Assembly (NCBI RefSeq): GCF_000015225.1
Contig: NC_008698.1
Location: forward strand, 1,050,001-1,082,000
DNA: 32,000 bases
Source: Thermofilum pendens Hrk 5
GTDB lineage: Archaea; Thermoproteota; Thermoprotei; Thermofilales; Thermofilaceae
Direction: 5' to 3'
Shown here: piece after piece, positions 4,137-26,493 of the stretch
Layout of the letters: each line of letters starts with the position of its first letter
Position numbering within the stretch: the first letter of the stretch is position 1
Position numbers and translations under genes: made by a program
The notes under the pieces: model-generated
Databases searched by the model: none
What the model saw: only the letters and a program-made list of their open reading frames with translations
What the model was told of the DNA's origin: nothing

Positions 4137-6164
4137 CTACTCGAAGCAACCGTAGCTACCGGCTAGGTCGAGGTACCCGCACCGAGTCAGCTGGGCGCAA
4201 ACGGCGTAGTTCTTCTTTCCCGTCGTTCTTTTAAGTAGCGAGGCTGCGTCGAAGAGCATGCCGGCGTACTCGCACCCCTCCCTGACCAGGAGCTTTACTA
4301 AGCCTTCGAGCTCGCTCAAGGCCTTCTCCCTCTCACCCTTCTTCAGCCACGCCTCGGAGAGCGACAGCTTCACTGAGAAGAAGAGCGCGTCCGCTCTCCC
4401 GCTCTCCTCGTACATGGCGAGCACTCTAGCCAGGGCGCTTTCCGCCTCGCCGTACCTCTCCAGTTGTAGCAGGGCAAACCCCCGCAAAGCCAGGGACCTA
4501 GCGGTCTCCGGTAACCCGAGCTCCTCCCTCCTCTTCAAGGTGTACAGGCAGAGCTCCGGCAACCCCCTTCCAAGCCTTACCTCCGCGAGCTCTTCGAGCA
4601 CGGAGCCCAGGAGGACCCTGTACTCCTCGCCGTGGGGGGCGAGCCTTTCCAGGATGCTTGCCGAGAGGTGGGCGAGCTCCTCCGAGACTGCGAGCGCACC
4701 GCTAGACCTCGCATACCTCTCCAGGACTCCCAGCCTGTGGAGCGTCGAGCCCCTCAGGAACCCCGAGACTGTGCCGGGCCTCAGTATGGCCACGGCCTCT
4801 AGTGCTTGGAGTGAGGCCTCTTCAGTCAAGCTGTTCAGCGAGGTGTACGCTAGGACTCTGCCCGCGCCAGGGACGCCTGACACGAGGATCCATGAAGCCA
4901 CGAATGGTTGCTCAGAGGAGTATGCCAGCTCAGCCACGCCAGCCGGGGCTGCGGGGATCCCTCTAAACGCTAGCTGGAGCGGCGTAGACCTGAAGGAGTA
5001 AAGCCCCAGGTGCGGCACCCTTAAAAGCAACCTGTCCGCGTACTCCTTGTACTCCTCCGCGGCGCTCCCCAGCACCCCAGCCGGGAAGCTCCTCGTCCTG
5101 AACGAGGCAGGGATGGACAGGGCTTCCCGGAAGCCCGGGGGCACAGCCTCCCTCACCCTCTCGTAGACTGATTGTCCGCCGGGCCCCAGGTCGCAGGGCT
5201 TCCCGGCTTGCCGGCAGAGCGCGAGGTAAAGCGACGCGGCGTCTACGCAGGAGGGGTTCCCGGGGCACTTCTCGGCGATCTCGCGGGCGAGTTTCCCGCC
5301 TCCAAGCCCCTCCCAGGCGAGCCTAGCCTCCGCTATCTCCAGTAGCTCTTTCTCCGAGTACACCCCGTCCAGAACCACCGGGGCCGGCGGATCCCCGCTC
5401 CAGCCCGAGGGGGCAAACACTATCTCGCTGGACACAGTGAACACGGCTTTCTTACCGGAGAGGAGCGAAGCGTGAGCCGGGTCGCCGTAGTAGAGGGAGT
5501 ACCCTTCTTCGAGTAGCCTGGAGGCGAGCAGGTAGGCTAGCGAGTGCCTACCGGACCCCGCCTTGCCCTTGAGCGCCACAGCCCGCCCTTCTTCAAGTAG
5601 CCCGATTGACCTCGAAATTGCGGAGGAGGAGCCCTCCCCGGATACCAGCTCGGAGAGTAGCGGCCAAAGCTCGTCCAGAACCCACGGCAGGCTCTCCGTA
5701 TCCACCTGTAGGAGGCTCGGCCTCGCTGGTACGTCCAGCTCTACGACGTTGAAGCTAATCCTGTCCCTTATCTCCCGCAGGATACTCCTAGCGGTATCCG
5801 AGCCGGCGCCGAGCACCGACTCCAGCTCGTCGAGGGAGGCTAACAGCCAGTCAACGGTGTCCAGCGTTAAAAGCGAGACATCTACGCCCCCCAAGAAAGC
5901 CTCGAGCAAAGACACTACATACCTGTGGAGCACGCGCCTCTCGCCCTCTGGGGCTCCCTGTAGCCCGTGCCCAGCCACCCGTACTTTCTCCGCGGCGTCT
6001 TCGAGTACCTGAAGGCTTACCTCGCCCAGCGAGGCAGCGAGAACGCTCTCGACGTCCTCCCAGTGCTTCTTCCCGCAGTCGAGGAGTATCTGCGCGAGGC
6101 GCACAAAGTCTCCTCCGGGCGGCGCCTTCCTTGCTTCTGCGGCTACGCAGGCGTAGTAGGACAT
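4137..6164 (-). CDS. Large hypothetical protein: central degenerate P-loop NTPase-like domain plus C-terminal TPR-like helical repeats (STAND-like architecture)
   Basis: 675 aa. A Walker-A-like ALKGKAGSGRHSLAYLLA (nt about 5541-5567) has Arg-His where GK[ST] is expected. Walker-B-like PVVLDG lies about 60 aa downstream. The C-terminal 150 aa show TPR-like repeats (LALRGFALLQLERYGEAESALARVLAMYEESG..., SEAWLKKGEREKALSELEGLVKLL). I recognised no close family. Confidence 0.55.
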   Translation of the reverse strand: MSYYACVAAEARKAPPGGDFVRLAQILLDCGKKHWEDVESVLAASLGEVSLQVLEDAAEKVRVAGHGLQGAPEGERRVLHRYVVSLLEAFLGGVDVSLLTLDTVDWLLASLDELESVLGAGSDTARSILREIRDRISFNVVELDVPARPSLLQVDTESLPWVLDELWPLLSELVSGEGSSSAISRSIGLLEEGRAVALKGKAGSGRHSLAYLLASRLLEEGYSLYYGDPAHASLLSGKKAVFTVSSEIVFAPSGWSGDPPAPVVLDGVYSEKELLEIAEARLAWEGLGGGKLAREIAEKCPGNPSCVDAASLYLALCRQAGKPCDLGPGGQSVYERVREAVPPGFREALSIPASFRTRSFPAGVLGSAAEEYKEYADRLLLRVPHLGLYSFRSTPLQLAFRGIPAAPAGVAELAYSSEQPFVASWILVSGVPGAGRVLAYTSLNSLTEEASLQALEAVAILRPGTVSGFLRGSTLHRLGVLERYARSSGALAVSEELAHLSASILERLAPHGEEYRVLLGSVLEELAEVRLGRGLPELCLYTLKRREELGLPETARSLALRGFALLQLERYGEAESALARVLAMYEESGRADALFFSVKLSLSEAWLKKGEREKALSELEGLVKLLVREGCEYAGMLFDAASLLKRTTGKKNYAVCAQLTRCGYLDLAGSYGCFE

Positions 6165-7421: not shown

Positions 7422-8249
7422 ATGAGGGAACGCGTCGCGCTACTAACCTTCCTCGCCGTGCTGGGGATCACGGTTGCTAAGCTCGCCGTCTACGCTCTCA
7501 CATCGAGCATGGCAGCCTTCACAGAGTTCGTGGACTCTGTTACCGACATAGCTACCTCTGCGCTAGCCCTGCTGTCCGTTAGGCTGAGCAGAAAGCCGCC
7601 GGACGAGGACCACCACTACGGGCACGGGAAAGCTGAGGCGCTGGCAGGCTACACTATAGGGCTCTTCGCGGGTACGTCTCTGGCCTACGTAGTCGCGGAG
7701 CTCGTGAAGAGGGTCCTGGAGGGCTATATCGTGAGAAGCGACCCCCTAGCCGTCCAGATCGCCGCGGCGATAGTGGCCGTGGACTCGGGGCTGGCCGGCG
7801 TGAACTACCTCGGGTACAGGGCGAGCAAAAGCGTAGCCCTGAGGGCGAACGCTGTTAACTACATGGGTGACTCCCTGAGAGCTCTGGGAGTCCTCACCGC
7901 GATAACCACTGCGTGGCTGGATCCCTTTGTGACTGCCGTCCTTGCCTCTATACTCGCCGTAGAGGTTTTCCACCTACTTCGGGAGAGCACGTCGATCCTC
8001 ATGGATGAGGCCTCCGAGGAGCTCACGAGGCGGATAGCCGAGTCCTTGAGGGGTGTCGAGGAAGTGGAGGAGGTGAGGAAGATCAGGGTTAGGCACTCGG
8101 GTACGCACTACCAGGTCGACGTCGTCGTGGCGGTTAAAGGCGGGAAAACAATCGAGGAGGCTCACAGGGCGGCAGACGAGGTGGAGAAGAGGGTTAAGGC
8201 GGCGTTGGGTGCCGAAGTAGACGTGCTCGTACACGTGGAGCCCTGCTAG
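7422..8249 (+). CDS. Cation diffusion facilitator (CDF) family metal-ion exporter
   Basis: 275 aa. Six hydrophobic segments, with the conserved TM2 FVDSVTD and loop motif HHYGHGKAEAL, followed by a C-terminal cytoplasmic alpha/beta domain (VRKIRVRHSGTHYQVDVVV...VLVHVEP). SD-like AGGAGGAGG at 7409-7417. Confidence 0.9.
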   Translation: MRERVALLTFLAVLGITVAKLAVYALTSSMAAFTEFVDSVTDIATSALALLSVRLSRKPPDEDHHYGHGKAEALAGYTIGLFAGTSLAYVVAELVKRVLEGYIVRSDPLAVQIAAAIVAVDSGLAGVNYLGYRASKSVALRANAVNYMGDSLRALGVLTAITTAWLDPFVTAVLASILAVEVFHLLRESTSILMDEASEELTRRIAESLRGVEEVEEVRKIRVRHSGTHYQVDVVVAVKGGKTIEEAHRAADEVEKRVKAALGAEVDVLVHVEPC

Positions 8250-8351: not shown

Positions 8352-9503
8352 ATGAAAACGAGGATCGTCGGGCTAGCACTAGTAGCCCTACTGCTACTGG
8401 CACCCCTGCAGATAGCCCTCGCGGGCACAGACACTTCGGCCGAGATCCTAGTATCGAACGCGAAGCGCCTCCAGCAACTGGTACACTACAGGAACACCGT
8501 GATCTCCTCAACGCTAAACGTCACGAGCATAGGATCCAACTGGACCCTGATACTCAACCTGACCCTCCAGGCCGACCTATACCTTAACGCTAGCATACAG
8601 GCCCTCAACGCGGGTAACTACACCGAGGCGAAGATCTACGCCATAAAAGCGATAAACACCTACGGCCAGGTACTAGAACTCCAAGAGGAGCTTGCCGAGG
8701 AGTACGACATACACTTCAAGCTTGAAGGGGAAATCGAGGAAGGCTACGCCAACGCCACGAAGCTCGGGGTAAACGCCTCAATAGCCATTAACCGCACCGC
8801 CCTCACCCTCCAGCTCGAAGTCCTGGAGAACAGGGTAGACCTACTCCTCGAAGTCCTCGGAAAGGTGAACACATCCCTCTACAACGTCTCGGGCGCCATA
8901 AGCCTGCTCCAAGAGGCGAAGCTCCTCCTAGAGGAGGCTGAGGCCAAGCTGGAGGCGGGCAACATCACCGTCCCGGAGCTCGCGAAGACACTCGCCGTGG
9001 TGAAGAAGATACTGGGACTCGTGAACGCCGAGCTCCACAGGGCGTCGCTGGCGCTTACAGTTAACCGCGCGATGAAGCTAGGCCTCCTGAAGAAGAACGA
9101 GACCCTGCCGCTCAACATGTCCCCCTTAATAAACCACACGAAGATAAAAGTCAAGGGGCTCAAAGGCAACCTCACGGAGCGCTTGGAGGAACTGGAGGAA
9201 GAGCTCAACGAGACGGCGGCGAAGATAGCGGCCGGCAACGTGTCGGCGAAGGAAGTGAAGAAAGCCGGTAAGCAACTCGAAAAGGAGCTCAAGGAGGTAG
9301 AGAAGAAGCTCAACGAAGTCTTCAGCCGCGTTGAGAACAAGATCGCGACGAAAGCAAAGGAGAAGGGAGGATGGAAGCACGAGATCAAGGTAGAAGTCAA
9401 AGAGAAGCACGGACAGGGCCCGCAGCCCTGGACTCCGAGTGTAACGCAAGGAGAAAGTGAGGAAGAGCACGAGGAAGGCGAAGGAAGAGGTAGAGGAAAG
9501 TAA
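8352..9503 (+). CDS. Secreted, heavily N-glycosylation-sequon-rich coiled-coil protein (possible surface or extracellular structural protein)
   Basis: 383 aa. Signal peptide MKTRIVGLALVALLLLAPLQIALAG. I counted 17 N-x-S/T sequons. Long heptad-like E/K/L-rich stretches and an acidic/Gly-Arg tail (ESEEEHEEGEGRGRGK). No C-terminal TM anchor. Confidence 0.75.
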   Translation: MKTRIVGLALVALLLLAPLQIALAGTDTSAEILVSNAKRLQQLVHYRNTVISSTLNVTSIGSNWTLILNLTLQADLYLNASIQALNAGNYTEAKIYAIKAINTYGQVLELQEELAEEYDIHFKLEGEIEEGYANATKLGVNASIAINRTALTLQLEVLENRVDLLLEVLGKVNTSLYNVSGAISLLQEAKLLLEEAEAKLEAGNITVPELAKTLAVVKKILGLVNAELHRASLALTVNRAMKLGLLKKNETLPLNMSPLINHTKIKVKGLKGNLTERLEELEEELNETAAKIAAGNVSAKEVKKAGKQLEKELKEVEKKLNEVFSRVENKIATKAKEKGGWKHEIKVEVKEKHGQGPQPWTPSVTQGESEEEHEEGEGRGRGK

Positions 9504-9775: not shown

Positions 9776-12214
9776 ATGGCAGAACTTACAAGGAGAGATG
9801 CAATCAAGCTCGGGGCACTGCTCGCCATAGCCTCTTCGCTTAATCTACCAGTAAAGGTTCAGAGACCATCCCGGGAAGTAGAAGCCTCCGCGGCTACAGC
9901 CAGGATACCCGTAATGTGCAGTATGTGCGCCGCGGGATGCGGGATTCTCCTAGTCAAGGAGGGAAACGGCACGGTCTACGTTGAGCCGAACCTCGAGCAC
10001 CCGCAGCCGGGGCTCTGCGCGAGGGCGGCTTCCGCGCTCCAGCTGTGGAACCACCCCTTGAGGCTGAAGAAGCCCTTGAAGAGGGTTGGCGAAAGGGGTG
10101 AGGGCAAGTTCCAGGAGGTCGACTGGGATACTGCTCTCAACGAGATAGCTACGAAGCTGAAGGAGATAATCTCCAAGTATGGTCCCGAGTCTGTCGTATT
10201 CACGTACCACGACTTCTACGCCTGGCACATGCCGCTCATAGCGTTCACGCTCGGCACGCCTAACCACGTTCAGCACGCGTCTTGTTGCCACAACGCAAGC
10301 ACGTACGCGAGGATGCTGGTTCTAGGGGCAGGTGGACCTCCGACCGTCGACCCGGACTACGAGCGGGCACGCTACGTAGTGTTCGTGGGCCGAGTTCTGT
10401 GCGCGGCGATGGGCATGGTTCAAAGGCTTCAGAAAGCGCGGGAGTCCGGCGTGAAGCTAGTCTTCGTGGACCCCAGGATGGGCAACGCGGCGATGGCAGA
10501 GGGTGAGTGGGTCCCCATACTGCCCGGTACGGACGCCGCCTTCCTGCTCTCCATGATCCACGTCATACTCAGCGAGAAGCTGTACGACGAGTCCTTTTTG
10601 AAGAAGTACACGAACGCGACTTTCCTCATAAAGCCCGACGGAAGCCCCCTCACAGAGAAAGACCTCGGCAGGGAGGGCTCAGACTACGTTGTCTACGACG
10701 CCGACGCGAAAGACTTCCTGAGCTACAAGAAGTCGAAGAACCCGGCCCTCGAGTGGGAGGGCGACGTCGCCGGCTTCCACGTGAAGACAGCGTTCCTGCT
10801 ACTCAAGGAGAGGGCTTCGCAGTACGCCCCTGAGCAGGCCGAGAAGATATGCGGGGTCCCGGCGGACACTATCAGGAGGATTGCCCGCGAGTTCGCCAAC
10901 GCTAGGGGAGTGGTGGAGGACGGCTGGTGGTCCGCGAAGAACGCGAACGACTCAGATGCTTATAGGGCCGCGCTTACACTCAACGCCCTCGTCGGTAGCA
11001 TCGAGACTGCGGGGGGTCTCTACATAAAGCTGGGGTCTAAGATGCCCCCCTCAGCCACGGCGACTGCCGAAAAAGTAACCACGATTACGGGCGGAACGCT
11101 TCCCGGGATCAGGGCGAAGAGGATAGACACGCAGAAGTACCCAGCTGTACCCCATGTTTTCGACGCCGTGCTTGACGCCGCGCTCGAAGGCAAGCCGTAC
11201 CCGGTTAAAGCTCTGTTCATCGTGGGCGCCGAGCCTTTCACTAGGGATGTGAACACCGAGAAACTGAAAAAGGCCCTCAAAGCCATGGAGCTCGTCGTGG
11301 TAATCGACGTTGTACCGAACGATAGCGTTGACTACGCGGACTACGTGCTCCCGGACAACATCTTCCTGGAAAGGGAGGAGCTCACAGACGTCAAGTTTAC
11401 TCCGCACGCGGCGATACAGCTGTCGCACAAAGCCCTCGACCCGCCTCCCGGCATAGACGCGCGGAACGGCTTCTGGATCATGATGGAAATCCTGCGCCGA
11501 ACAGTCCCCGAGAGAGCCAAGGCAGTAGGCTACACCGAGGAGTATTCCAGCTACGAGAAGTTCAAGGAGTTCGAAGCGCTTGTCAAGCGGAAAGTCTTGG
11601 AGTCCCTCTCGAAGACGTGGAACGTCCCGGTGGAAGACATAGAGAAGTCCCTTGAGGAGAAAGGCTTCTATGTGTTCAAGCACTGGATGCCGAAGGCGGG
11701 CCCGGGAACCCTCCCCACGCCCAGCGGCCTCGTCGAGATATACAGCCTGGCAGCGCTAAAGTACAACGACGACCCGCTACCAAAGTGGAAGCGCCCGCCG
11801 TACACACTTCCGAGCAACCCGGACGAGTTCTACCTCGTGAGCGGAAGGGACCAGTTCGTCACCGCGCACGCTGTGTGGACGAAGAACATTATCCACCTAG
11901 TAGACAGGAGGGTCTGGATGAACCCCAACGACGCTAAGCGCCTGGGCATAAAGGACGGCGACCTCATAGAGCTCGAAGGGCTGGACAACCACTACAAGGC
12001 CCGCGCGAGGGTAAAGGTGACGAACAGGGTTAGGGAAGGCGTTCTGTTCGTGTACAGCAGAGCGGGAGGACGCTTCTCGAGGCTTATCACGGGCGAGTAC
12101 GAAGTTATGAAGGAGGGGATAAACCCGAACATGTTCACTCTGAGCTGGCTGGAGCCGCTCAACGGGTCGACGGGTCTTAACTCTACGGTTAAGGTTAGAA
12201 GGGTGGGAGCATGA
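9776..12214 (+). CDS. Tat-exported molybdopterin (bis-MGD) oxidoreductase catalytic subunit, PsrA/PhsA/TtrA/SreA/ArrA-like (substrate not determinable by eye)
   Basis: 812 aa. Twin-arginine signal LTRRDAIKLGALLAIASS. N-terminal 4Fe-4S motif CSMCAAGCG...C (CxxCxxxC...C). A Cys-containing segment QHASCCHNAS lies where the Mo-ligand Cys is expected. The C-terminal beta-barrel region matches the molydopterin dinucleotide-binding domain (DLIELEGLDNHYKARARVKVTNRVREGVLFV). Confidence 0.9.
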   Translation: MAELTRRDAIKLGALLAIASSLNLPVKVQRPSREVEASAATARIPVMCSMCAAGCGILLVKEGNGTVYVEPNLEHPQPGLCARAASALQLWNHPLRLKKPLKRVGERGEGKFQEVDWDTALNEIATKLKEIISKYGPESVVFTYHDFYAWHMPLIAFTLGTPNHVQHASCCHNASTYARMLVLGAGGPPTVDPDYERARYVVFVGRVLCAAMGMVQRLQKARESGVKLVFVDPRMGNAAMAEGEWVPILPGTDAAFLLSMIHVILSEKLYDESFLKKYTNATFLIKPDGSPLTEKDLGREGSDYVVYDADAKDFLSYKKSKNPALEWEGDVAGFHVKTAFLLLKERASQYAPEQAEKICGVPADTIRRIAREFANARGVVEDGWWSAKNANDSDAYRAALTLNALVGSIETAGGLYIKLGSKMPPSATATAEKVTTITGGTLPGIRAKRIDTQKYPAVPHVFDAVLDAALEGKPYPVKALFIVGAEPFTRDVNTEKLKKALKAMELVVVIDVVPNDSVDYADYVLPDNIFLEREELTDVKFTPHAAIQLSHKALDPPPGIDARNGFWIMMEILRRTVPERAKAVGYTEEYSSYEKFKEFEALVKRKVLESLSKTWNVPVEDIEKSLEEKGFYVFKHWMPKAGPGTLPTPSGLVEIYSLAALKYNDDPLPKWKRPPYTLPSNPDEFYLVSGRDQFVTAHAVWTKNIIHLVDRRVWMNPNDAKRLGIKDGDLIELEGLDNHYKARARVKVTNRVREGVLFVYSRAGGRFSRLITGEYEVMKEGINPNMFTLSWLEPLNGSTGLNSTVKVRRVGA

Positions 12215-12774
12215 GGCTGGCGCACCTCTGGGATCAGAGCAGGTGTATAGGTTGCGGGGCTTGCATAGCGGCGTGCAACGCGGCTAACTACCGCTCCACC
12301 ACGAAGGACAACCCGACGTGGGGAGGAGTACAGACGAACATTAAGCGCATAGTCTTCGACCTCAAGGAGAAACCGTACATCCTGCTGGTACAGTGCCAGC
12401 ACTGCGAAAACGCTCCCTGCGTTGCCGTCTGCCCCACAGGCGCCTCGTACATCGATAGGGATGGCCTCGTTAAGATAAACCCCGACCTCTGCATAGGGTG
12501 CAAGTACTGCATGACCGCCTGCCCCTACGGTATGCGCTGGCTCGACCCCGACTTCGGGCTACCGGAGAAGTGCATGGGCGAGACGTGCCAGTCGAGGGTC
12601 AAGGCGGGCTTGATGCCCGTATGCGTTACCGTGTGCCCCGCCGGCGCGAGAGCGTTCGGAGACCTCGACGACCCGAATAGCGAGGTGAACAAGAGGCTTA
12701 AGAAGGGTAGGGTCGTCAGGCTCCTCGAGTATAAAGGTACGAGGCCAAAGTTCTTCGTGGTGGTGGGAAGATGA
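12211..12774 (+). CDS. 4Fe-4S ferredoxin-type electron-transfer subunit (PsrB/TtrB/NrfC-like)
   Basis: 187 aa with four cluster motifs: CIGCGACIAAC, CQHCENAPCVAVCP, CIGCKYCMTACP, and C...CVTVCP. ATGA overlap with the upstream catalytic subunit. Confidence 0.9.
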   Translation: MRLAHLWDQSRCIGCGACIAACNAANYRSTTKDNPTWGGVQTNIKRIVFDLKEKPYILLVQCQHCENAPCVAVCPTGASYIDRDGLVKINPDLCIGCKYCMTACPYGMRWLDPDFGLPEKCMGETCQSRVKAGLMPVCVTVCPAGARAFGDLDDPNSEVNKRLKKGRVVRLLEYKGTRPKFFVVVGR

Positions 12775-13649
12775 TGTTCCAGGAGGTTTGGAACCCGGTA
12801 ATCATTGGGCTGTTCCTCTGGTTCGCCGGCATAGCCGGGATGGGGAGCGTTGCGTACGCGTTGATGAAGCTGGGCAAGGTGGAGGAGAAGACCAAGGAGC
12901 TATCCTGCGTGGTGTTCGCGTCCATAGTGCTGGCCCTAGTATTCGTGGTGGCAGACCTCTCAAGGCCTCTCAACATGCCCCTAGCGATTATACGCTCGGT
13001 TCTCAGCGGCACGTTCTTCTACAAGCTCTCTACATCCTGGATGACGATAGGCATCTCCCTGCTCTCCATCCTCCTGCTACTCGCACTACTAGTGCTCCTC
13101 CGCGAGACAGTGGCTAAAGGGCTCCAAAAGATCGTTGACGCGAAGTGGTACCTCGTGCTAACGGGCTTCGTGGGCTTCATGGTAGTGATATACAGCGGCT
13201 TCCTGATAGCAGACGCGCCCGGAGTGCCCTTCTGGAACAACTCCCTGATCCCGGTGCTCTGGATACTCTCCGCCTCTATATGCGCGATCGCAGTACTGAA
13301 AATCCTAGTGCACAAGCCCGAGGTCTCGAACTTCCTTACGAAGTCGGGCCTCGCGGTAGACATCGCGGAGGCTGTAGCCCTAGCGTCGCTGCTGAACGTC
13401 TCGCTGTACTCCGGCGTAGAGGCGGCGCGGAGGAGCGCGGAGGCTCTCGTAGCAGGCGAGCTCGCCGCGGCTTTCTGGCTCCTGGTAGTTCTCGTAGGGG
13501 TAGCGGTGCCGATGGTGCTAGGCTTCATGCTGCTCAGGAAGGAGGATAGGAGGCTCGCACTCCTAGCCGCCGCCTGCGCCCTAGTAGGCGCGCTCGCGCT
13601 CAGAATACTAGTACTACAGGCAGGAATCTTCCTGGAACTGTCTCTTTAA
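12771..13649 (+). CDS. NrfD/PsrC-type integral membrane quinol-interacting anchor subunit
   Basis: 292 aa with about 8 hydrophobic helices. It sits in the third position of an A-B-C molybdoenzyme operon, with a 4-nt ATGA start/stop overlap (start 12771, upstream stop 12772-12774). Confidence 0.8.
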   Translation: MMFQEVWNPVIIGLFLWFAGIAGMGSVAYALMKLGKVEEKTKELSCVVFASIVLALVFVVADLSRPLNMPLAIIRSVLSGTFFYKLSTSWMTIGISLLSILLLLALLVLLRETVAKGLQKIVDAKWYLVLTGFVGFMVVIYSGFLIADAPGVPFWNNSLIPVLWILSASICAIAVLKILVHKPEVSNFLTKSGLAVDIAEAVALASLLNVSLYSGVEAARRSAEALVAGELAAAFWLLVVLVGVAVPMVLGFMLLRKEDRRLALLAAACALVGALALRILVLQAGIFLELSL

Positions 13650-13668
13650 AAAAACCTTTTTTTATTTT
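13648..13668. terminator. Shared bidirectional oligo-T terminator (A7-CC-T7-A-T4) between convergent operons
   Basis: Sequence aaaaaaaccttttttt atttt sits exactly between the psrC-like stop (13647-13649) and the SdhD-like stop (13662-13664). Each strand reads a T7 run right after its own stop. Archaeal RNAP terminates at oligo-T. Confidence 0.6.
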
Positions 13669-14006
13669 AGTAGCACTAGCACGTTGAATGCTACTATCCA
13701 CGTGGCTAGCGCTATCCCCAGCGCTGTCAGTACTTTTCTGGATTTCTCCTCGCTCAGCAACTTCGACTCCACGAGGACCATGTGGAGCCCGTATAGAGCG
13801 TGGTAGGTAGCCGAGAACGCCAGTACGAGCTCTCCGAGCATTACGAGCGGGTTCTTGAGAGCCGCCAAGACCTCTTCGTAGGTGGGTATGCCGTGCGCCG
13901 ACCCGAGCAGGTGCACTCTGACTATGTGGGCTGAGACGGCTAGCGCGAGCACTGCTCCGGTTACTGCCTGGAGGAACCAGGCTACCCCGCTTTTACCGGA
14001 AGGCAT
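13662..14006 (-). CDS. SdhD-like small hydrophobic membrane-anchor subunit
   Basis: 114 aa with 3 TM helices and conserved His residues (SAHIVRVHLLG, TYHALYGLHMV). It overlaps the upstream SdhC-like gene by 14 nt. Confidence 0.65.
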   Translation of the reverse strand: MPSGKSGVAWFLQAVTGAVLALAVSAHIVRVHLLGSAHGIPTYEEVLAALKNPLVMLGELVLAFSATYHALYGLHMVLVESKLLSEEKSRKVLTALGIALATWIVAFNVLVLLK

Positions 14007-14376
14007 TCACTATCACCGCCGCGCCGACGGCGAAGAGCACGACTATTGCCAGCCAGCTCGCGGCTAAGAGTTGCCTCCTCTTCTCCAGGAGGAACCCCGA
14101 CTCTACTACCGCGGAGTAGGCTCCGAGCACACCGTGCACGACCAGCACCCCCCATAGGAAGAGGTCCACGAGTACCGCTGGAGGAGAAGTGAACACCTTG
14201 AGGAAGGAGTCGTAGACCTCCTTGCCGAGCACGACGGTCGATATGTCGACCATGTGCACGAGGAAGTACAGGGCTAGCACTATCCCGGAAAGCCTTCTCA
14301 ACGAGAACGACACGTGCTCCAGGCTTCTACCCTTAACGCGGAACCACGACGACAAGACAACCCGCAACCTCTCCAC
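13993..14376 (-). CDS. SdhC-like cytochrome b membrane-anchor subunit
   Basis: 127 aa with 3 TM helices. The pattern LRRLSGIVLALYFLVHM...VVHGVLG is typical of succinate dehydrogenase / fumarate reductase subunit C. It directly abuts the Fe-S subunit gene. Confidence 0.7.
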   Translation of the reverse strand: MERLRVVLSSWFRVKGRSLEHVSFSLRRLSGIVLALYFLVHMVDISTVVLGKEVYDSFLKVFTSPPAVLVDLFLWGVLVVHGVLGAYSAVVESGFLLEKRRQLLAASWLAIVVLFAVGAAVIVNAFR

Positions 14377-15045
14377 CTACCTCACCCCGAGCTTACCCGA
14401 TAGGAAACCCCTCCTAACCTTCATTATAGTCTCGCCCGGCTTGAAGCCAACCGGGCACCTCACGCTACACTCGAAGGCCGCGTGACAGGCCCACACGCCC
14501 CTCCTCGAGTCTAGAACGGCGGGGACCTTCCCGTCCTTCGAGGACCTGTAGGCAAGCGCTATGACCGAGGGGCCCAGGTACTCCGGGAAAGTGTTCGCTA
14601 TGGGGCACGCAGAGTAGCATACCCCGCACTCCACGCAGTCGAAGAGCTTTTCCAGCTCGACCACCCCGTCTACCCTCTCCAGTGTGCCGGGCTCTACGAG
14701 CGCGTACTGGGAGAACATCCTCGACTTGTCCACGGCTAGGTCGCTGACAACGCGGAACCCTCTGAGCGGCTCGACCACAACTACGCCTCCCCTGGCAACC
14801 TCGCCTATCCTGGTCACGCAGGCAAGCCTCTCCACGCCGTTTATGACCATGCCGCAAGCCCCGCACACGCCGTGGTGGCATGCGTGCTCGAACGTCAGCG
14901 TGGGGTCCTGTTCCAGGCTTACCTTTTCGAGCGCGTCGAGCACCGATGTATCAGGGTCAACGTCTACCTCGTAGGCCCTGTACTCCGCTTCCCTCCAGCC
15001 CTGCTTGTACCTCCTAACCACTAAACGGTACCTCACGTCGACCAC
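14377..15045 (-). CDS. SdhB/FrdB-type iron-sulfur subunit (2Fe-2S, 4Fe-4S, 3Fe-4S)
   Basis: 222 aa. Motifs CHHGVCGACGMVINGVERLAC (2Fe-2S), CVECGVCYSACP (4Fe-4S), and CHAAFECSVRCP (third cluster). The start lies 3 nt after the stop of the upstream flavoprotein gene. Confidence 0.9.
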   Translation of the reverse strand: MVDVRYRLVVRRYKQGWREAEYRAYEVDVDPDTSVLDALEKVSLEQDPTLTFEHACHHGVCGACGMVINGVERLACVTRIGEVARGGVVVVEPLRGFRVVSDLAVDKSRMFSQYALVEPGTLERVDGVVELEKLFDCVECGVCYSACPIANTFPEYLGPSVIALAYRSSKDGKVPAVLDSRRGVWACHAAFECSVRCPVGFKPGETIMKVRRGFLSGKLGVR

Positions 15046-15048
15046 CTC

Positions 15049-16203
15049 CTAGGTGAAGTACGCCCAGTACGGTGCGAGGGGGGTCTCCGCCGTGCGGGAG
15101 GGCGTGGAGACACCGAGCCTCTCGGCTACGAAGTCGCCCGTCTTCTCCGCCATGAGCCTAGCAGTCGTGAACTTCCCGCCTATAACGCTTGCCATGTTGC
15201 CGGCGCCTTCCCGCGAGTGGTCGATGATGGCGAAGCTCCTGCTGACCTCCCTACCGGTACCCGCCGGCAGGCTCCCCACCAGGGGGCGGGACGACACGTA
15301 CACAGCTTTCACCCTCAGCTTGGAGGTCACCGGGGCAAGCTCCCTCCCGCGCCTGAGCAGTAGCTCCACGTGCTCCCTGGGGGCCTCCACCTTGTCGGGA
15401 TCCTCCACTACCCAGGAAGTCGTGCCTATAACCGAGGTCCCCCTGTGGTGGACTATTATATCCCCGTCCCCCGGCTTGTTTAGCCTGTTGAAGACCCTGA
15501 AGCCTACCCGCCCATCCAGCGCGACCATGACTCCCGGGCTGGGCTTCACCGGGACGTCGAGCCCCGCCAGCCTGGCGACCTTCTTGGCCCACGCCCCGGT
15601 CGCGTTAACGAAGAAGTCGGCCTCGAGCTCGTACTCCCTCAGGGATACCTTGTCCCTCACTTTAACCGCCTTCACCTCTCCCCCCTCCACCCTGAAGCCC
15701 ACGACCTCGTTGTACGGCCTAATGTCGGCCCCGCGCTGTTTAGCCGAAGCTAAAAAGCTCAGGATGACCTTTAAGGGGTCGAAGGTACCGTCGGGGACAA
15801 GCACCGCCGCCTTCAAGTCGGGGTTGAGGTTCGGCTCCAGCTTGAGAGCCTCCTCCCGGCTAACCTCCTTCACCGGTATGCCTGCCTCCTCGCACTTCTT
15901 GAGGAAGAAGTCCTTGTACTCCAGGTCTGACTCGTCCACGGCCACGAAAATCCCGCCGTTCTTCTCGAAGAGGAACGGCGCTATCCTCCGGAGCACCACG
16001 TTCTCGGAGTAACACTCCCTTGCCACCTCCACGTCCGCCACGTACCTACACCCGCTATGCAGGAGCCCGTGGGTTCTCCCGCTCGTACCGCTCCCGATGG
16101 AGCCTCTCTCGAGTAGCGTTACCCTCAGCCCGCGTAGCGCCAAGTCGTAGGCAAGCGCTGCTCCCGTGACGCCTCCGCCTATCACGACGACCTTCTTCGT
16201 CAA
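15049..16203 (-). CDS. glpA: FAD-dependent glycerol-3-phosphate dehydrogenase, short GlpA/GlpD-type (DAO family)
   Basis: 384 aa. N-terminal dinucleotide fold VVVIGGGVTGAALAYDLALRGLRVTLLER followed by GTSGRTHGLLHSGCRY, which matches the GTSxxSxKLxHGGxRY pattern of GlpA/GlpD. Located immediately downstream of glpK. TTG start at 16201-16203. No C-terminal BFD-like 2Fe-2S extension. Confidence 0.8.
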   Translation of the reverse strand: MTKKVVVIGGGVTGAALAYDLALRGLRVTLLERGSIGSGTSGRTHGLLHSGCRYVADVEVARECYSENVVLRRIAPFLFEKNGGIFVAVDESDLEYKDFFLKKCEEAGIPVKEVSREEALKLEPNLNPDLKAAVLVPDGTFDPLKVILSFLASAKQRGADIRPYNEVVGFRVEGGEVKAVKVRDKVSLREYELEADFFVNATGAWAKKVARLAGLDVPVKPSPGVMVALDGRVGFRVFNRLNKPGDGDIIVHHRGTSVIGTTSWVVEDPDKVEAPREHVELLLRRGRELAPVTSKLRVKAVYVSSRPLVGSLPAGTGREVSRSFAIIDHSREGAGNMASVIGGKFTTARLMAEKTGDFVAERLGVSTPSRTAETPLAPYWAYFT

Positions 16204-16267
16204 GGGAGGTCAACCTGTAACTTTATTGATAGTTATTTAAACTTTGTTGAGTAAATAGGGTGGATAC

Positions 16268-17839
16268 TTAGTAGCCGTACGCCCAGGGAACCTCCTTGGC
16301 CCAGCCGAGCGCCCGCTTGACGGCGGCCTTCCAGCCGGCGTAGAGCTGTTCCCTTTTCTCGCGGCTCATCTGGGGCGTAAACCTCTTCTCCTCCCTCCAG
16401 AGCCTCCCCACCTCGTCCAGGCTGCTCCAAACGCCTACAGCTAAACCCGCCAGGTAGGCTGCCCCGAGAGCGGTCGTCTCCCGTACGAGGGGTCTTACAA
16501 CGTCTACTCCCAGAATGTCTGCCTGGAACTGTAGGAGGAAGTCGCTCCTTGCAGCGCCCCCGTCCGCTTTAAGAATCCTCACAGCGTAGCCAGCATCTGC
16601 CTGCATGGCTTCCACAACGTCCCTCGTGAGGTAGGCTATGCTTTCGAGTACTGCCCGCGCTAAATGCTTTCTCGTGGTTCCGCGGGTAATCCCTATGATG
16701 AGCCCCCTCGCGTAGGGATCCCAGTAGGGGGCTCCGAGCCCCGTGAACGCCGGGACGAAGTACAGCCCGCCCGTATCGTCCGCCGACTCCGCGAGGGGGT
16801 CGATCTCCGGGGACACTTCTATCAGTTTCAGCCCGTCTCTTAGCCACTGGATAGCAGCCCCAGTTATGAATATGCTTCCTTCGAGCGCGTAGGTCGCTCT
16901 ACCCTTTGATAGAGAGTAGAACACCGTGGTTAGAAGCCCGCTCCTCGAGTAGCGTATCTCCCCGCCTGTATTCATGAGTATAAAGTTCCCGGTGCCATAC
17001 GTGCATTTAACGTCTCCCGGCGTGAACCCCGCCTGCCCGAATAGCGCTGCCTGCTGGTCTCCAGCGTCCCCGGCGACGGCTATGCTCTTACCGTTGAATA
17101 TACCGTTAAGTTCCGGGCCGGTGTACCCGTATATCTCCGGGTCCGAGGAGGGCCTCGGCGTTGGAAGAGAGTCCTCCGGTATCCCGCCCATAGCCTCCAG
17201 TAGCTCTGGGTCCCACTCAAGCCTCTTTATGTTGAACAACATGGTCCTACTGGCGTTTGAGTAGTCGGTTACATGGGCGCCGCCTTTCTCAGGGGTTAAC
17301 ACCTCCCTGGATCCGCGCGTAAGGTTCCATATGATCCAGGAGTCTATCGTGCCGAAGACAGCCTCCCGCCTAGCTACCTTTTCGCGAAGCCCCTCCACGT
17401 TCTCGAGCAACCACTGTATCTTGCTCCCGGAGAAGTAGGGGTCCGGGATAAGCCCGGTCTTCTCGCGTATCTCCTCCAGCCGCTCCTCCTTCAATTTATC
17501 AGTTATCGGGGCTGTACGCCTATCCTGCCACACTATCGCGTTGTAGAGAGGGTTCCCGGTGCGGACGTCCCAGACGACAACAGTCTCCCTCTGGTTAGTC
17601 ACTCCTATCGCGGCTATCTCGCCCGGGTCCACCTTGGACCTCCTCACGGCGTCCCTTATGCACTCTAGCGTTTTCTCCCAGATCTCTAGGGGGTTGTGCT
17701 CAACCCACCCAGGCCTGGGGTAGATCTGCGTGTGCTCCCTGTAAGACCACCCGCCAGGCACGGGTCTACCTTCCGGGTCGAAAATAGCCGCTCGGGTTCC
17801 AGTAGTACCCTGATCTATTACCAAGACTAGCTTTGACAT
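16268..17839 (-). CDS. glpK: Glycerol kinase
   Basis: 523 aa, colinear with the FGGY-family glycerol kinase pattern: [50 protein letters not shown], and [23 protein letters not shown]-like TTTATATTTTTTA lies on the minus strand at about 17857-17875. Confidence 0.95.
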
Positions 17840-18018
17840 AGCTTAAATGGCTTGAGGATAAAAAATATAAAGATTCCTTTTGAAACAAAGCGTTGGAGTA
17901 GCCTTTCGACTCATTCGTGCGCAGGAAGTATGGGTACATTCACGCTCGGATGGAGGCTTGTAAAAGGAACATACGCGGCAGATGGGCTTGAAACGAGAAC
18001 TCATGTAAACAACACTTG

Positions 18019-20398: not shown

Positions 20399-20788
20399 GT
20401 GAGGGAAGAGGCCTCGCTGTGGTTCAGGCAGGCAGAGAGGGACCTCGAAAAGGCGAGGAACGACCTAGTCACACATGACTGGGATTCGGCGGCTTTCTGG
20501 AGCCAGCAAGCAGCTGAGAAGGCCTTGAAAGCCCTCCTTCTAAGCCGGGGGAGGGTCTATAGGGGGCACAGCCTGCTCGCCTTGGCGGAAACCGCTAAGA
20601 GCGAGCTGGGGCTAAGCGTCGACGATATCATCGGGGATTTGAGGGAGCTCACAGTTCACTACACGATTTCGAGGTACCCCAACGCGGCGAACGCTTTTCC
20701 CTACGAGCTCTACGACGAGGCGAAGGCGAGGGAGCTGGTGGAGAGGGCCAGGAGGGTCGTGGAATGGGTAAGGCGCCATCTGCCCTAA
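20399..20788 (+). CDS. HEPN domain protein (putative RNase toxin of a HEPN/MNT module)
   Basis: 129 aa. Typical HEPN helices (AERDLEKARNDL..., FWSQQAAEKALKALLL...GHSLLAL) and an Rx4H motif within RELTVHYTISRYP. GTG start at 20399. Confidence 0.85.
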   Translation: MREEASLWFRQAERDLEKARNDLVTHDWDSAAFWSQQAAEKALKALLLSRGRVYRGHSLLALAETAKSELGLSVDDIIGDLRELTVHYTISRYPNAANAFPYELYDEAKARELVERARRVVEWVRRHLP

Positions 20789-21108
20789 GGTCCCAGGAGA
20801 AGGCCCTGGAGGTTGCGAAGAGGGTTGCCGGGAGGGCTGCCAAGCTCTGCGAGGGCAGGGGGTTCAAGCTCGTGGGTGCCTACCTGGTTGGTAGCAGGGC
20901 ACGGGGAGACTACCTGGAGACTAGCGACGTCGACCTGGTACTCGTGGTCGAAGGCGTGGAGGGGCTAAACGCCCTGCAGAGGCTCGAGCTTTTCAAAGAG
21001 GTCCTGGAGCCGGAAGTCGATCTCCTCGTGCTCTCCCCCGAAGAGTGGCGGGAAGGGCGTAGCGCCTGGGTGGAAACCCTCAAGAAGGAAGCCGTACCCC
21101 TAGTCTAG
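20764..21108 (+). CDS. Minimal nucleotidyltransferase (MNT; pol-beta superfamily), partner of the HEPN protein
   Basis: 114 aa. The GS...DxD signature appears as LVGSRARGDYLETSDVDLVLVV. It overlaps the HEPN gene by 25 nt. Confidence 0.85.
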   Translation: MGKAPSALRSQEKALEVAKRVAGRAAKLCEGRGFKLVGAYLVGSRARGDYLETSDVDLVLVVEGVEGLNALQRLELFKEVLEPEVDLLVLSPEEWREGRSAWVETLKKEAVPLV

Positions 21109-24969: not shown

Positions 24970-25748
24970 AGGCGGGAGACGTCGCGAGGATCTTCAAGGC
25001 GGGCGTACTCTTCGAGGTCTCAATGCTCAAGTCCAACAAGGGGTACTTTGCCGCCACCCTTGCCCGCCCCTACTTCGTCTACGCGCTCCTCCTCTTGATA
25101 TCGAAGCAGCTCGGCGCGGGCTACACGCCTAGAGACGTCGTGGTGCAGACCCTCGCCGTCACCGGCTCCATAGACGTCCTCTGGGACGTCGCCGGGCAGG
25201 GAATACTGCTAAGGGTCTCCGGGGTCCTACCGTACTACACCCTGTCGCCGGGAGGAGTACTCCTCGCGCTCGTCGTGAGCTACCTCCCGAGGTACATCCT
25301 CGAAACTCTCCTCAAAGCCGTAGCGTTCCTGCCTGTCCTCGCGCTCGAAGAGGGGCCCGCGGACGCGCTTTTACACCTCCTCGCGGCCTACGCGCTCCTC
25401 CTCCTAGGATTGCTCCCGCTACTGGGCATAAGCACGCTGGTCGCCGGGGCGACGCTCCTGGTACACGAAGAGTCCCCCGTGCTCGAGTGGGTTACGCCGC
25501 TCGTCCTGCTCCTCTCCGGGGCGGTGTACCCGGTGAGCGTACTGCCGGGGTGGATGCGGGCGCTCTCCGCTCTCATACCTGTGACCTACGTCGTGGAGCT
25601 CTCTAGGGCCCTAGAGGGGGGCGGGGGAGTCCAGGCTTTCTACAGCGGGGCTTTCGCGCTACTGATATCCCTCTCCATACTCTACAACGCCGCTGCCAGC
25701 AGGCTGTTCAGGAAGGCCGAGGAGGCCCTGCTAAGGAAGGGTGTCTAG
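24966..25748 (+). CDS. ABC-2 type transporter permease
   Basis: 260 aa with 6 hydrophobic helices. GTGA start/stop overlap with the ATPase gene. Confidence 0.65.
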   Translation: MKAGDVARIFKAGVLFEVSMLKSNKGYFAATLARPYFVYALLLLISKQLGAGYTPRDVVVQTLAVTGSIDVLWDVAGQGILLRVSGVLPYYTLSPGGVLLALVVSYLPRYILETLLKAVAFLPVLALEEGPADALLHLLAAYALLLLGLLPLLGISTLVAGATLLVHEESPVLEWVTPLVLLLSGAVYPVSVLPGWMRALSALIPVTYVVELSRALEGGGGVQAFYSGAFALLISLSILYNAAASRLFRKAEEALLRKGV

Positions 25749-26493
25749 CGTGGGCAGGCGTAAAGCCGTGCTCTGGCTCCACCTAATGCGGTCCAAGAGG
25801 TACGCGCTCAGCCTAGTCTCCGGCTCGCTCACCGACGCCCTTTGGATGATAATCCTGCTGGCCGGCTTCATCCTCGCCGGGAAGGCCCCCGAGGCCTCCA
25901 GCAACTACTGGGGGCTCGTCGCTTGGACCATCCTGTCGAACGCTACCTGGATGATCGGCGGCTGGGTCGACTACCTCGTGCTCCTAGGCCTAGTGGAGGA
26001 GCACGAGGTGCGCGGAGTCTCTGTGTTCGAGCTCGTAGCCGGGAGGGCTATCCCGATGCTCGCCTCCTCGGCTATCTCGTCTCTCGCGGCCTACGCCTTT
26101 CTAAGCCTCGCGGGGGCACGCGTAAGCGTTGCAAGCATCCCCGTGCTCGCCTCGTCGCTAGCCTTGCTCTACGCCCAGTCACTGTGCTACGGGTTGCTAC
26201 TTGCGTCTCTATCGCTGAGGACGGGCACGCCGAGCTACATGCTGGACATACTCAGCCTCGCCTTCCTGGGCCTCGCCTTCTCGCCCACCCCGGCCTCGCC
26301 CAGCGTCGCGCTGATCCCGCTACTGGGACCCATGCTACTCGCAAAGCTCTCCTCCACGGGTAGCGTCCAGCCGGCCGCGGTAGCCTACGGGGTACCCGCA
26401 ACCCTCTTCCTGGCTGTCGCCGCGCTACTCGCCTGTCGCTCGACGGAGGAGCACGCCAGGAGGAGGGGTGTACGGGCGGTGGGGCTAGTCTAG
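25741..26493 (+). CDS. Second ABC-2-like permease / membrane component
   Basis: 250 aa with about 6 hydrophobic helices. The GTG start overlaps the upstream stop by 8 nt, and operon position supports the call. Confidence 0.55.
   Translation: MSSVGRRKAVLWLHLMRSKRYALSLVSGSLTDALWMIILLAGFILAGKAPEASSNYWGLVAWTILSNATWMIGGWVDYLVLLGLVEEHEVRGVSVFELVAGRAIPMLASSAISSLAAYAFLSLAGARVSVASIPVLASSLALLYAQSLCYGLLLASLSLRTGTPSYMLDILSLAFLGLAFSPTPASPSVALIPLLGPMLLAKLSSTGSVQPAAVAYGVPATLFLAVAALLACRSTEEHARRRGVRAVGLV

Follow-up and report, generated by a model that had tools for sequence, protein, structure and literature searches.

In a 32,000-nt stretch of the Thermofilum pendens Hrk 5 genome (NC_008698.1, positions 1,050,001 to 1,082,000; hereafter the window, in whose numbering T. 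pendens coordinates are given), a glycerol kinase gene, glpK, is followed on the same strand by a gene for a short GlpA-type, flavin adenine dinucleotide (FAD)-dependent glycerol-3-phosphate (G3P) dehydrogenase and then by genes for three proteins resembling the SdhB, SdhC and SdhD subunits of complex II. Comparison of these proteins with known families and with related loci indicates that the products of the last four genes, Tpen_1127 to Tpen_1124, probably form a membrane-bound, complex-II-like G3P:quinone oxidoreductase of four subunits, in which the GlpA-type flavoprotein takes the place of SdhA, and we hold this reading with good confidence. The proposal of such a chimeric enzyme in the initial annotation of the window is supported by the assignment of the flavoprotein to GlpA, by the conservation of the cluster and haem ligands and by the linkage of the genes across domains. 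The five genes are as follows.

16268-17839, minus strand: glpK, glycerol kinase, 523 aa (exact match to ABL78526; Tpen_1128 by counting)
15049-16203, minus strand: short GlpA-type FAD-dependent G3P dehydrogenase, 384 aa, TTG start (Tpen_1127, A1RZ95, ABL78525)
14377-15045, minus strand: SdhB-like iron-sulfur subunit, 222 aa, or 219 aa from the GTG at 15036 (ABL78524; Tpen_1126 by counting)
13993-14376, minus strand: SdhC-like membrane subunit, 127 aa, or 124 aa as annotated (Tpen_1125 by counting)
13662-14006, minus strand: SdhD-like membrane subunit, 114 aa (exact match to ABL78522; Tpen_1124 by counting)

The locus numbers Tpen_1124 to Tpen_1128 were counted on from Tpen_1121-1123 by way of the sequential protein accessions, and only Tpen_1127 is confirmed by name (Schmerling et al.). 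The GlpA-SdhBCD architecture has already been published for this same locus, as a sequence-based prediction: Schmerling et al. (bioRxiv March 2024; Commun Biol 2025, PMC11962113) drew 'GlpA-SdhBCD (T. pendens)' in their Fig. 9b and aligned Tpen_1127 in their Suppl. Fig. 9, where its C-terminal extension is almost absent, drawing on synteny, phylogeny and modelling in an in-silico reconstruction. The statement in the initial annotation that the architecture was not known as characterised is therefore correct for its biochemistry but not for its description, which dates from 2024/2025. The same authors regarded GlpA-SdhBCD as confined to 'Thermofilum-related species' and bacterial glpA as occurring consistently with glpBC (PMC11962113). 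In agreement with the published class, Tpen_1127 has a C-terminal extension that is nearly nil, and its gene is followed directly by sdhB-, sdhC- and sdhD-like genes. Beyond that publication, the present analysis contributes the mainly bacterial distribution of the operon, the diheme-type ligand set of its membrane anchor and a variant that bridges to GlpC.

All five open reading frames (ORFs) lie where the initial annotation had placed them, with direct abutment of the SdhB- and SdhC-like genes, a 14-nt overlap between the SdhC- and SdhD-like genes, and a 64-nt spacer between glpK and glpA that is AT-rich (34% GC versus 60% for the operon). The 3-nt gap reported between the GlpA- and SdhB-like genes holds for the 222-aa ORF but becomes 12 nt with the RefSeq start of the latter at GTG 15036 (219 aa), and this start is favoured because a GGAGGTG Shine-Dalgarno-like motif is located 6 nt before it. 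RefSeq starts the SdhC-like gene at TTG 14367 (124 aa). The gene junctions within glpA-sdhBCD are tight or overlapping and carry Shine-Dalgarno-like motifs, through which the internal genes appear to be translationally coupled. As claimed previously, SdhA, GlpB and GlpC are lacking from the operon, and neither these three nor GlpF were found among the genes of the whole 32-kb window. RefSeq names the flavoprotein simply 'FAD-dependent oxidoreductase', and Tpen_1126 and Tpen_1124 are annotated as succinate dehydrogenase subunits B and D.

Profile hidden Markov model searches identified the kinase as GlpK (TIGR01311, 675 bits versus a cutoff of 590; FGGY_N and FGGY_C domains) and placed the 384-aa flavoprotein closest to GlpA. 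Against the GlpA model TIGR03377 it reaches 431 bits (E 4e-129), with the match confined to model positions 1-377 of 530, and it also matches the DAO family (PF01266, 200 bits). A comparison with GlpA, GlpD, SdhA and DAO profiles, which had been proposed as a check, leaves GlpA more than 300 bits ahead of every other family in the core that they share, with the GlpD models (110 bits) and ThiO (87 bits) next. The trusted cutoff of the TIGR03377 equivalog, 552.8 bits, is not reached because a C-terminus of about 150 residues is absent. Since the match ends at model position 377, and with no match to PF04324 (BFD), the protein lacks the BFD 2Fe-2S domain. The GlpA/GlpD-type motif noted in the initial annotation, GTSGRTHGLLHSGCRY, was found at residues 39-54.

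A single-chain AlphaFold2 model of the flavoprotein (predicted local distance difference test score, pLDDT, 89.8; predicted template modelling score 0.89) displays a DAO-fold core and closes with a five-residue helix, H379-383. Its best structural neighbours are E. coli GlpD (2qcu/2r4e) and GlpO, with template modelling scores of 0.83-0.84 when normalized on the query, which fall to about 0.6 when normalized on the longer targets. In an alignment of 30 homologues (66% mean column identity), residues R43, H45, H49, R53, Y54, R306-P-L, S321-R322 and G342-G-K344 are invariant, and R53, R306, R322 and K344 align with conserved residues of GlpD 3da1. The flavoprotein thus has a DAO fold, an N-terminal GxGxxG FAD site and the residues of the G3P site, and Schmerling et al. 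(PMC11962113) likewise state that the FAD and G3P sites of Tpen_1127 are conserved. Taken together, sequence and model support its identification as the catalytic core of a GlpA-type G3P dehydrogenase without the C-terminal domain. Two elements are candidates for contact with the SdhB-like partner, namely the C-terminal tail (residues 364-384), which is conserved across domains (R370, T371, L376 and P378) and may act in docking, and loop 311-321, the sole part of the model with low confidence (pLDDT about 39).

The SdhB-like protein contains Fer2_3 and Fer4_8 domains and scores 158 bits against the subfamily model TIGR00384 (cutoff 88), and it fails every equivalog SdhB/FrdB model (for example, PRK05950, 166 versus 228 bits, and PRK12576, 166 versus 344 bits). 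The three cluster motifs described in the initial annotation are all present (C56-x4-C-x2-C-x11-C76, C137-x2-C-x2-C-x3-CP and C187-x5-C-x3-CP), and the 11 Cys ligands for the 2Fe-2S, 4Fe-4S and 3Fe-4S clusters are invariant in 14 aligned sequences from SdhCD-type operons; in the single CCG-type SdhB-like sequence aligned, a second 4Fe-4S motif takes the place of the 3Fe-4S motif. Around the first 2Fe-2S Cys the protein carries a family-specific HACHH (residues 54-58), where a canonical mitochondrial SdhB in the PDB alignment reads SCREG, and 15 GlpA-linked SdhB-like sequences all keep H54 and H58. The HACHH motif could also be used to mark genes whose 'succinate dehydrogenase' annotation needs correcting.

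Both putative anchor subunits match PF01127 (Sdh_cyt; 33 bits for the SdhC-like and 41 bits for the SdhD-like protein, cutoff 25.8), each contains three transmembrane helices as judged by hydropathy, and the best PDB match of both is chain C of 6LUM. In these ungapped alignments, H41 of the SdhC-like and H27 of the SdhD-like protein correspond to His47 of 6LUM SdhC, and H81 and H69, respectively, correspond to its His87; none of the four residues varies among eight archaeal and bacterial subunits. In 6LUM, the menaquinone-dependent diheme M. smegmatis Sdh2 complex, haem bD is ligated by His C47 and His D65 and haem bP by His C87 and His D107. The axial His ligands of type A anchors come from helices I and IV for haem bD and from helices II and V for haem bP. 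Judged from the alignments, the four-His set has the pattern of type A diheme anchors at the bD and bP ligand positions, and the predicted anchor probably holds two haem b groups, one proximal and one distal.

The distribution of the operon was assessed with a profile scan of species-representative genomes with an SdhB-like pattern, which returned at least 597 relatives, and synteny was counted in the best 80 of these. Since the patterns used in the scan, CG[AT]CGMx[VI][ND]G and W[RSA]CH..., single out this subfamily, the 80-locus set is no test of its separation from canonical SdhB. These 80 comprise one member of the Thermofilaceae, one of the Actinomycetota and otherwise Anaerolineae/Chloroflexota, among them the cultured species Longilinea arvoryzae, Thermanaerothrix daxensis and T. 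solaris. Of the 73 loci with sufficient flank, 72 have a short GlpA gene immediately upstream of the SdhB-like gene, at least one Sdh_cyt gene lies downstream of it in 74 of 75, and glpK is found upstream in 58 of 61. Because the same order recurs in about 80 genomes of two domains, the arrangement is far beyond what chance would produce. No SdhA-like gene was present in the sampled related loci whose called genes had Pfam annotation.

Bacteria have many homologues of the short GlpA (384-400 aa, 50-58% identity). For example, the full GlpK-GlpA-SdhB-SdhC-SdhD operon is found in Anaerolinea thermophila UNI-1 (AP012029, 3040210-3052959) and in another, metagenome-assembled genome (MAG), members of the Solirubrobacteraceae have GlpA, the SdhB-like gene and two Sdh_cyt genes in line, and a Chloroflexi contig from a vent carries the order MIP-Dak1-Dak2-GlpK-GlpA-SdhB-like. 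The operon is therefore mainly bacterial, occurring in Anaerolineae and Actinomycetota, and since GlpA-SdhBCD operons are found across Bacteria, the published view that bacterial glpA consistently accompanies glpBC is incomplete. We did not find bacterial GlpA-SdhBCD in the literature, of which subscription journals were thinly covered. Among the archaea, glpA-sdhBCD is kept in Infirmifilum lucidum and in a Thermofilum MAG, so that three Thermofilaceae share the order. A neighbour-joining tree, which is rough and indicative only (it is without support values and has a single outgroup), places the Thermofilaceae together with a cluster containing a Nitrososphaerota-labelled member in one clade among bacterial lineages, with Anaerolinea, Thermanaerothrix and Longilinea as nearest neighbours; this topology suggests inter-domain transfer behind the Thermofilaceae operon. 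The cluster in question (P0025), of 60%-identical short GlpA proteins, branches beside the Thermofilaceae, and its one named member (MCD6511211.1) is labelled as a Thaumarchaeota/Nitrososphaerota MAG. The module may thus occur in a second archaeal lineage.

A variant of the operon was identified in a Firmicutes MAG (locus L005, 7170-9000; likewise locus L006, 6356-8186), where a short GlpA gene is followed by genes for proteins of 302 and 287 aa. The 302-aa protein has matches both to SdhB (169 bits) and to the dicluster-bearing N-terminal half of GlpC (positions 2-155), and its third motif reads CxxCxxC...CP; the 287-aa protein corresponds to the CCG half of GlpC (positions 164-400, 265 bits versus a cutoff of 278). 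Since the former matches the N-terminal half of GlpC and the CCG half stands in place of SdhCD, the SdhB-like subunit is predicted to occupy the relay position that the BFD domain and GlpC hold in GlpABC. At the level of sequence, this split-GlpC arrangement links the GlpA-SdhBCD architecture to GlpABC. In a broader proposal, for which we consider the chances evenly balanced, the loci as a whole would represent a large family of G3P:menaquinone oxidoreductases of the diheme, complex-II type that is mainly bacterial (Anaerolineae, Actinomycetota and other groups), with a CCG-anchored variant in Firmicutes and acquisition by Thermofilaceae through inter-domain transfer.

Several of these loci have further features. 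Both Firmicutes loci also contain, on the other strand, a long BFD-containing GlpA-like gene with Pyr_redox_2 and DUF1667 partners, and in an Anaerolineae MAG (L062, 10123-11775) a long GlpA of 550 aa is encoded about 4 kb downstream of the short-GlpA/SdhBCD operon, so that both types of G3P dehydrogenase can coexist in one genome. In some Chloroflexia MAGs (L039, L062, L076 and L084) the glpK or glpA frames are split into several ORFs, possibly as frameshift assembly errors or pseudogenes.

In the mechanism we propose, GlpK would convert glycerol to sn-glycerol-3-phosphate, which would be oxidised to dihydroxyacetone phosphate (DHAP) on the FAD of the 384-aa GlpA core. Because the short GlpA has no in-cis BFD 2Fe-2S domain, electrons would leave FADH2 for the 2Fe-2S cluster of the SdhB-like subunit and pass onward through its 4Fe-4S and 3Fe-4S clusters to the membrane anchor, a six-helix heterodimer of SdhC and SdhD, where the four conserved His residues are placed for a proximal and a distal haem b and where a membrane quinone would be reduced. 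The quinone is presumably of the menaquinone type since T. pendens is a strict anaerobe, and the resulting quinol could be re-oxidised by a neighbouring Psr-type sulfur/polysulfide reductase. In this scheme we infer the assembly of the complex, its electron path and haem content, the type of quinone, the physiological direction and the energy coupling.

A number of considerations nevertheless weigh against this interpretation. Diheme anchors usually serve the endergonic transfer of electrons from succinate to menaquinone, whereas transfer from G3P to menaquinone is exergonic given the respective potentials (E0' about -190 mV for DHAP/G3P and about -74 mV for menaquinone) and has no obvious need of one. 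No enzyme, structure or expression data for any member of the class were found in the literature or the PDB. Infirmifilum uzonense carries the operon (its SdhB-like protein is P0128), yet it is reported not to grow on glycerol (PMC4673724), and the module may be used for glycerol or G3P that is scavenged, without supporting growth on glycerol alone. Finally, the short G3P dehydrogenases of S. acidocaldarius reduce quinones in vitro without a partner (Schmerling et al., PMC11962113), and a relay of Fe-S clusters is therefore not strictly needed for the chemistry.

This last observation is also what favors an arrangement in which the SdhBCD-like proteins are a membrane dock only, as CoxG is in S. 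acidocaldarius, and the short GlpA reduces quinone directly from FAD, with the clusters and haems off the main path. The Sulfolobus enzymes reduce ubiquinone-1 without CoxG, which is an anchor only (PMC11962113), and GlpD, which is monotopic, also reduces quinone directly. However, it is hard to explain why a passive anchor should keep 11 Cys and four His residues invariant in SdhCD-type operons of two domains, the short GlpA itself lacks any amphipathic or C-terminal extension with which to bind the membrane, and the CCG-type variant retains the full dicluster relay; we regard a mere dock as unlikely. It is very unlikely, in our estimation, that the flavoprotein oxidises a different substrate, such as a 2-hydroxy acid, a polyol phosphate or an amine, making the complex another kind of DAO-family:quinone oxidoreductase. 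Such a substrate would fit the score of the protein below the TIGR03377 trusted cutoff, its noncommittal RefSeq name, a best PDB match in phmmer to a proline/sarcosine-type enzyme (1y56_B) and the failure of I. uzonense to grow on glycerol, but the shortfall in score is accounted for by the missing C-terminus with GlpA far ahead over the core, GlpD and GlpO are the closest structural neighbours, conservation of the G3P-site residues has been reported, and glpK is adjacent in nearly all loci counted (58 of 61), often with MIP and Dak genes.

The annotation of two of the subunits as succinate dehydrogenase, together with a score above the SdhB/FrdB subfamily cutoff, could instead mean that Tpen_1124-1126 are ordinary iron-sulfur and anchor subunits of a succinate dehydrogenase or fumarate reductase, serving an SdhA or FrdA encoded at a distance, and that their position next to glpA is incidental. 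We find this highly improbable given that a short GlpA occupies the SdhA position in the same order in about 80 genomes (Thermofilaceae, Anaerolineae and Actinomycetota), that the junctions are tight or overlapping with Shine-Dalgarno motifs, and that the SdhB-like protein fails all equivalog models and has HACHH, not SCREG. As complex II enzymes are reversible and quinol:fumarate reductases may have diheme anchors, the complex might also work in reverse, as a quinol:DHAP reductase making G3P. By the textbook potentials given above, electron transfer from menaquinol to DHAP is uphill, archaeal lipids are built on glycerol-1-phosphate and not on G3P, and the linkage to glpK, MIP and Dak genes points to catabolism, so that operation in this direction is scarcely credible.

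A G3P:quinone oxidoreductase of the proposed composition would combine features of several known systems. With GlpABC of E. coli and haloarchaea it has in common a GlpA-type core (431 bits to TIGR03377) and a path from FAD through 2Fe-2S to 4Fe-4S-type clusters, and both are predicted menaquinone-linked enzymes of anaerobes. In contrast to GlpABC, the T. pendens proteins include no BFD domain, GlpB or GlpC, the 2Fe-2S cluster would be carried on a separate SdhB-type subunit, and integral SdhC/SdhD helices bearing haem ligands, instead of CCG domains, would attach the complex to the membrane. The type A diheme Sdh2 (6LUM) shares the SdhB-type three-cluster subunit and the two three-helix anchors, whereas its flavoprotein is SdhA (about 580 aa, PF00890 and PF02910) and not a 384-aa DAO/GlpA protein with presumably non-covalent FAD, and its substrate is succinate where that predicted for T. 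pendens is G3P. In addition, the T. pendens SdhB-like protein falls outside the equivalog models with HACHH replacing SCREG, and no SdhF was seen. The GlpA-CoxG system of S. acidocaldarius (Saci_2032/2031 and Saci_1118/1119) likewise has a truncated GlpA without BFD, an adjacent gene for a membrane partner and glpK close by. Its CoxG partner is a small, cofactor-less anchor and quinone is reduced directly, whereas three Fe-S clusters and probably two haems would intervene in T. pendens. Finally, the type E succinate:quinone oxidoreductases (SdhB and SdhE) are paralleled by the Firmicutes locus L005, which encodes a short GlpA, an SdhB-like protein with CxxCxxC...CP and a CCG protein. T. pendens differs from type E in having a 3Fe-4S-type third motif and integral SdhCD, without a CCG protein.

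If assembled as predicted, the complex would show that the Fe-S and membrane module of complex II is not bound to succinate/fumarate chemistry and can serve a DAO-family flavoprotein, and it would constitute a third entry of G3P into the quinone pool beside monotopic GlpD and GlpABC. Should the broader family proposal also be true, SdhBCD would be a portable 'plug-in' for flavoproteins other than SdhA, and the split-GlpC variant an evolutionary bridge to GlpABC. Use of a distal haem and a distal quinone site would couple G3P oxidation to transmembrane electron transfer, and we know of no G3P dehydrogenase for which such coupling is known. The family seems to be common among anaerobic Anaerolineae, a group abundant in digesters, sediments and hot springs, and it may be a major overlooked route for the catabolism of glycerol and lipid backbones. 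The cultured carriers A. thermophila UNI-1, Longilinea arvoryzae and Thermanaerothrix species offer tractable material for biochemistry and cryo-electron microscopy. For metabolic reconstructions, the 'succinate dehydrogenase' labels on Tpen_1124-1126 and their relatives can yield false calls of complex II.

Three putative transcription signals were read from the sequence around the five genes.

17864-17871, minus strand: TATA-like box TTTATATT, 24 nt upstream of the glpK ATG; putative promoter of a near-leaderless transcript
16234-16241, minus strand: TATA-like box TTTAAATA, in the 64-nt spacer 30 nt upstream of the glpA TTG; putative separate promoter
13650-13661, no strand assigned: 12-nt intergenic sequence AAAAAGGTTTTT between the convergent sdhD and psrC stop codons, with a run of seven T on each strand; putative bidirectional oligo-T terminator

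The promoter roles assigned to the TATA-like boxes follow the architecture of archaeal promoters. Oligo-T is a known termination signal of archaeal RNA polymerase, and the 12-nt gap would act as a putative terminator for both convergent operons. In I. lucidum, two opposite-strand genes, a HEPN/nucleotidyltransferase pair (locus L090, 7953-8667, minus strand), part glpK from glpA-sdhBCD. Because of this split arrangement and of the TATA-like box in the spacer, glpK and glpA-sdhBCD are probably two transcription units, each with its own promoter. The same two observations disfavour a single five-gene transcript; the five-gene glycerol operon of the initial annotation stands as to gene set and order, but one shared transcription unit is not favoured. 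A pair of the same type, HEPN with an MNT-type nucleotidyltransferase, is located upstream of the T. pendens glp region (20399-21108, plus strand).

Tail-to-tail with sdhD, the window contains a Psr/Sre-type sulfur or polysulfide reductase cluster (9776-13649, plus strand) encoding an 812-aa molybdopterin subunit with a twin-arginine translocation signal, a 187-aa 4Fe-4S subunit and a 292-aa NrfD/PsrC subunit. It corresponds to Tpen_1121-1123, the sole sulfur/polysulfide reductase molybdoenzyme listed for T. pendens, in which a predicted quinone-reducing and a predicted quinol-oxidising enzyme are thus encoded side by side. A conserved functional link between the operon and Psr was considered and rejected, as neither I. 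lucidum nor the Thermofilum MAG has a Psr cluster beside sdhD, although both have the same flanking genes (thioredoxin, HAD, LysO, MFS, metallophosphoesterase, GalK and GalT). The adjacency is specific to T. pendens, and a quinone-mediated link there is plausible.

Four further ORFs of the window have no significant Pfam family (4137-6164, minus strand, 675 aa; 8352-9503, plus strand, 383 aa; 25741-26493, plus strand, 250 aa; and 30358-31791, plus strand, 477 aa). The 383-aa ORF, a CDF transporter gene (7422-8249) and the Psr cluster sit between genes that are adjacent or nearly so in other Thermofilaceae, which suggests that all three were inserted in T. pendens.

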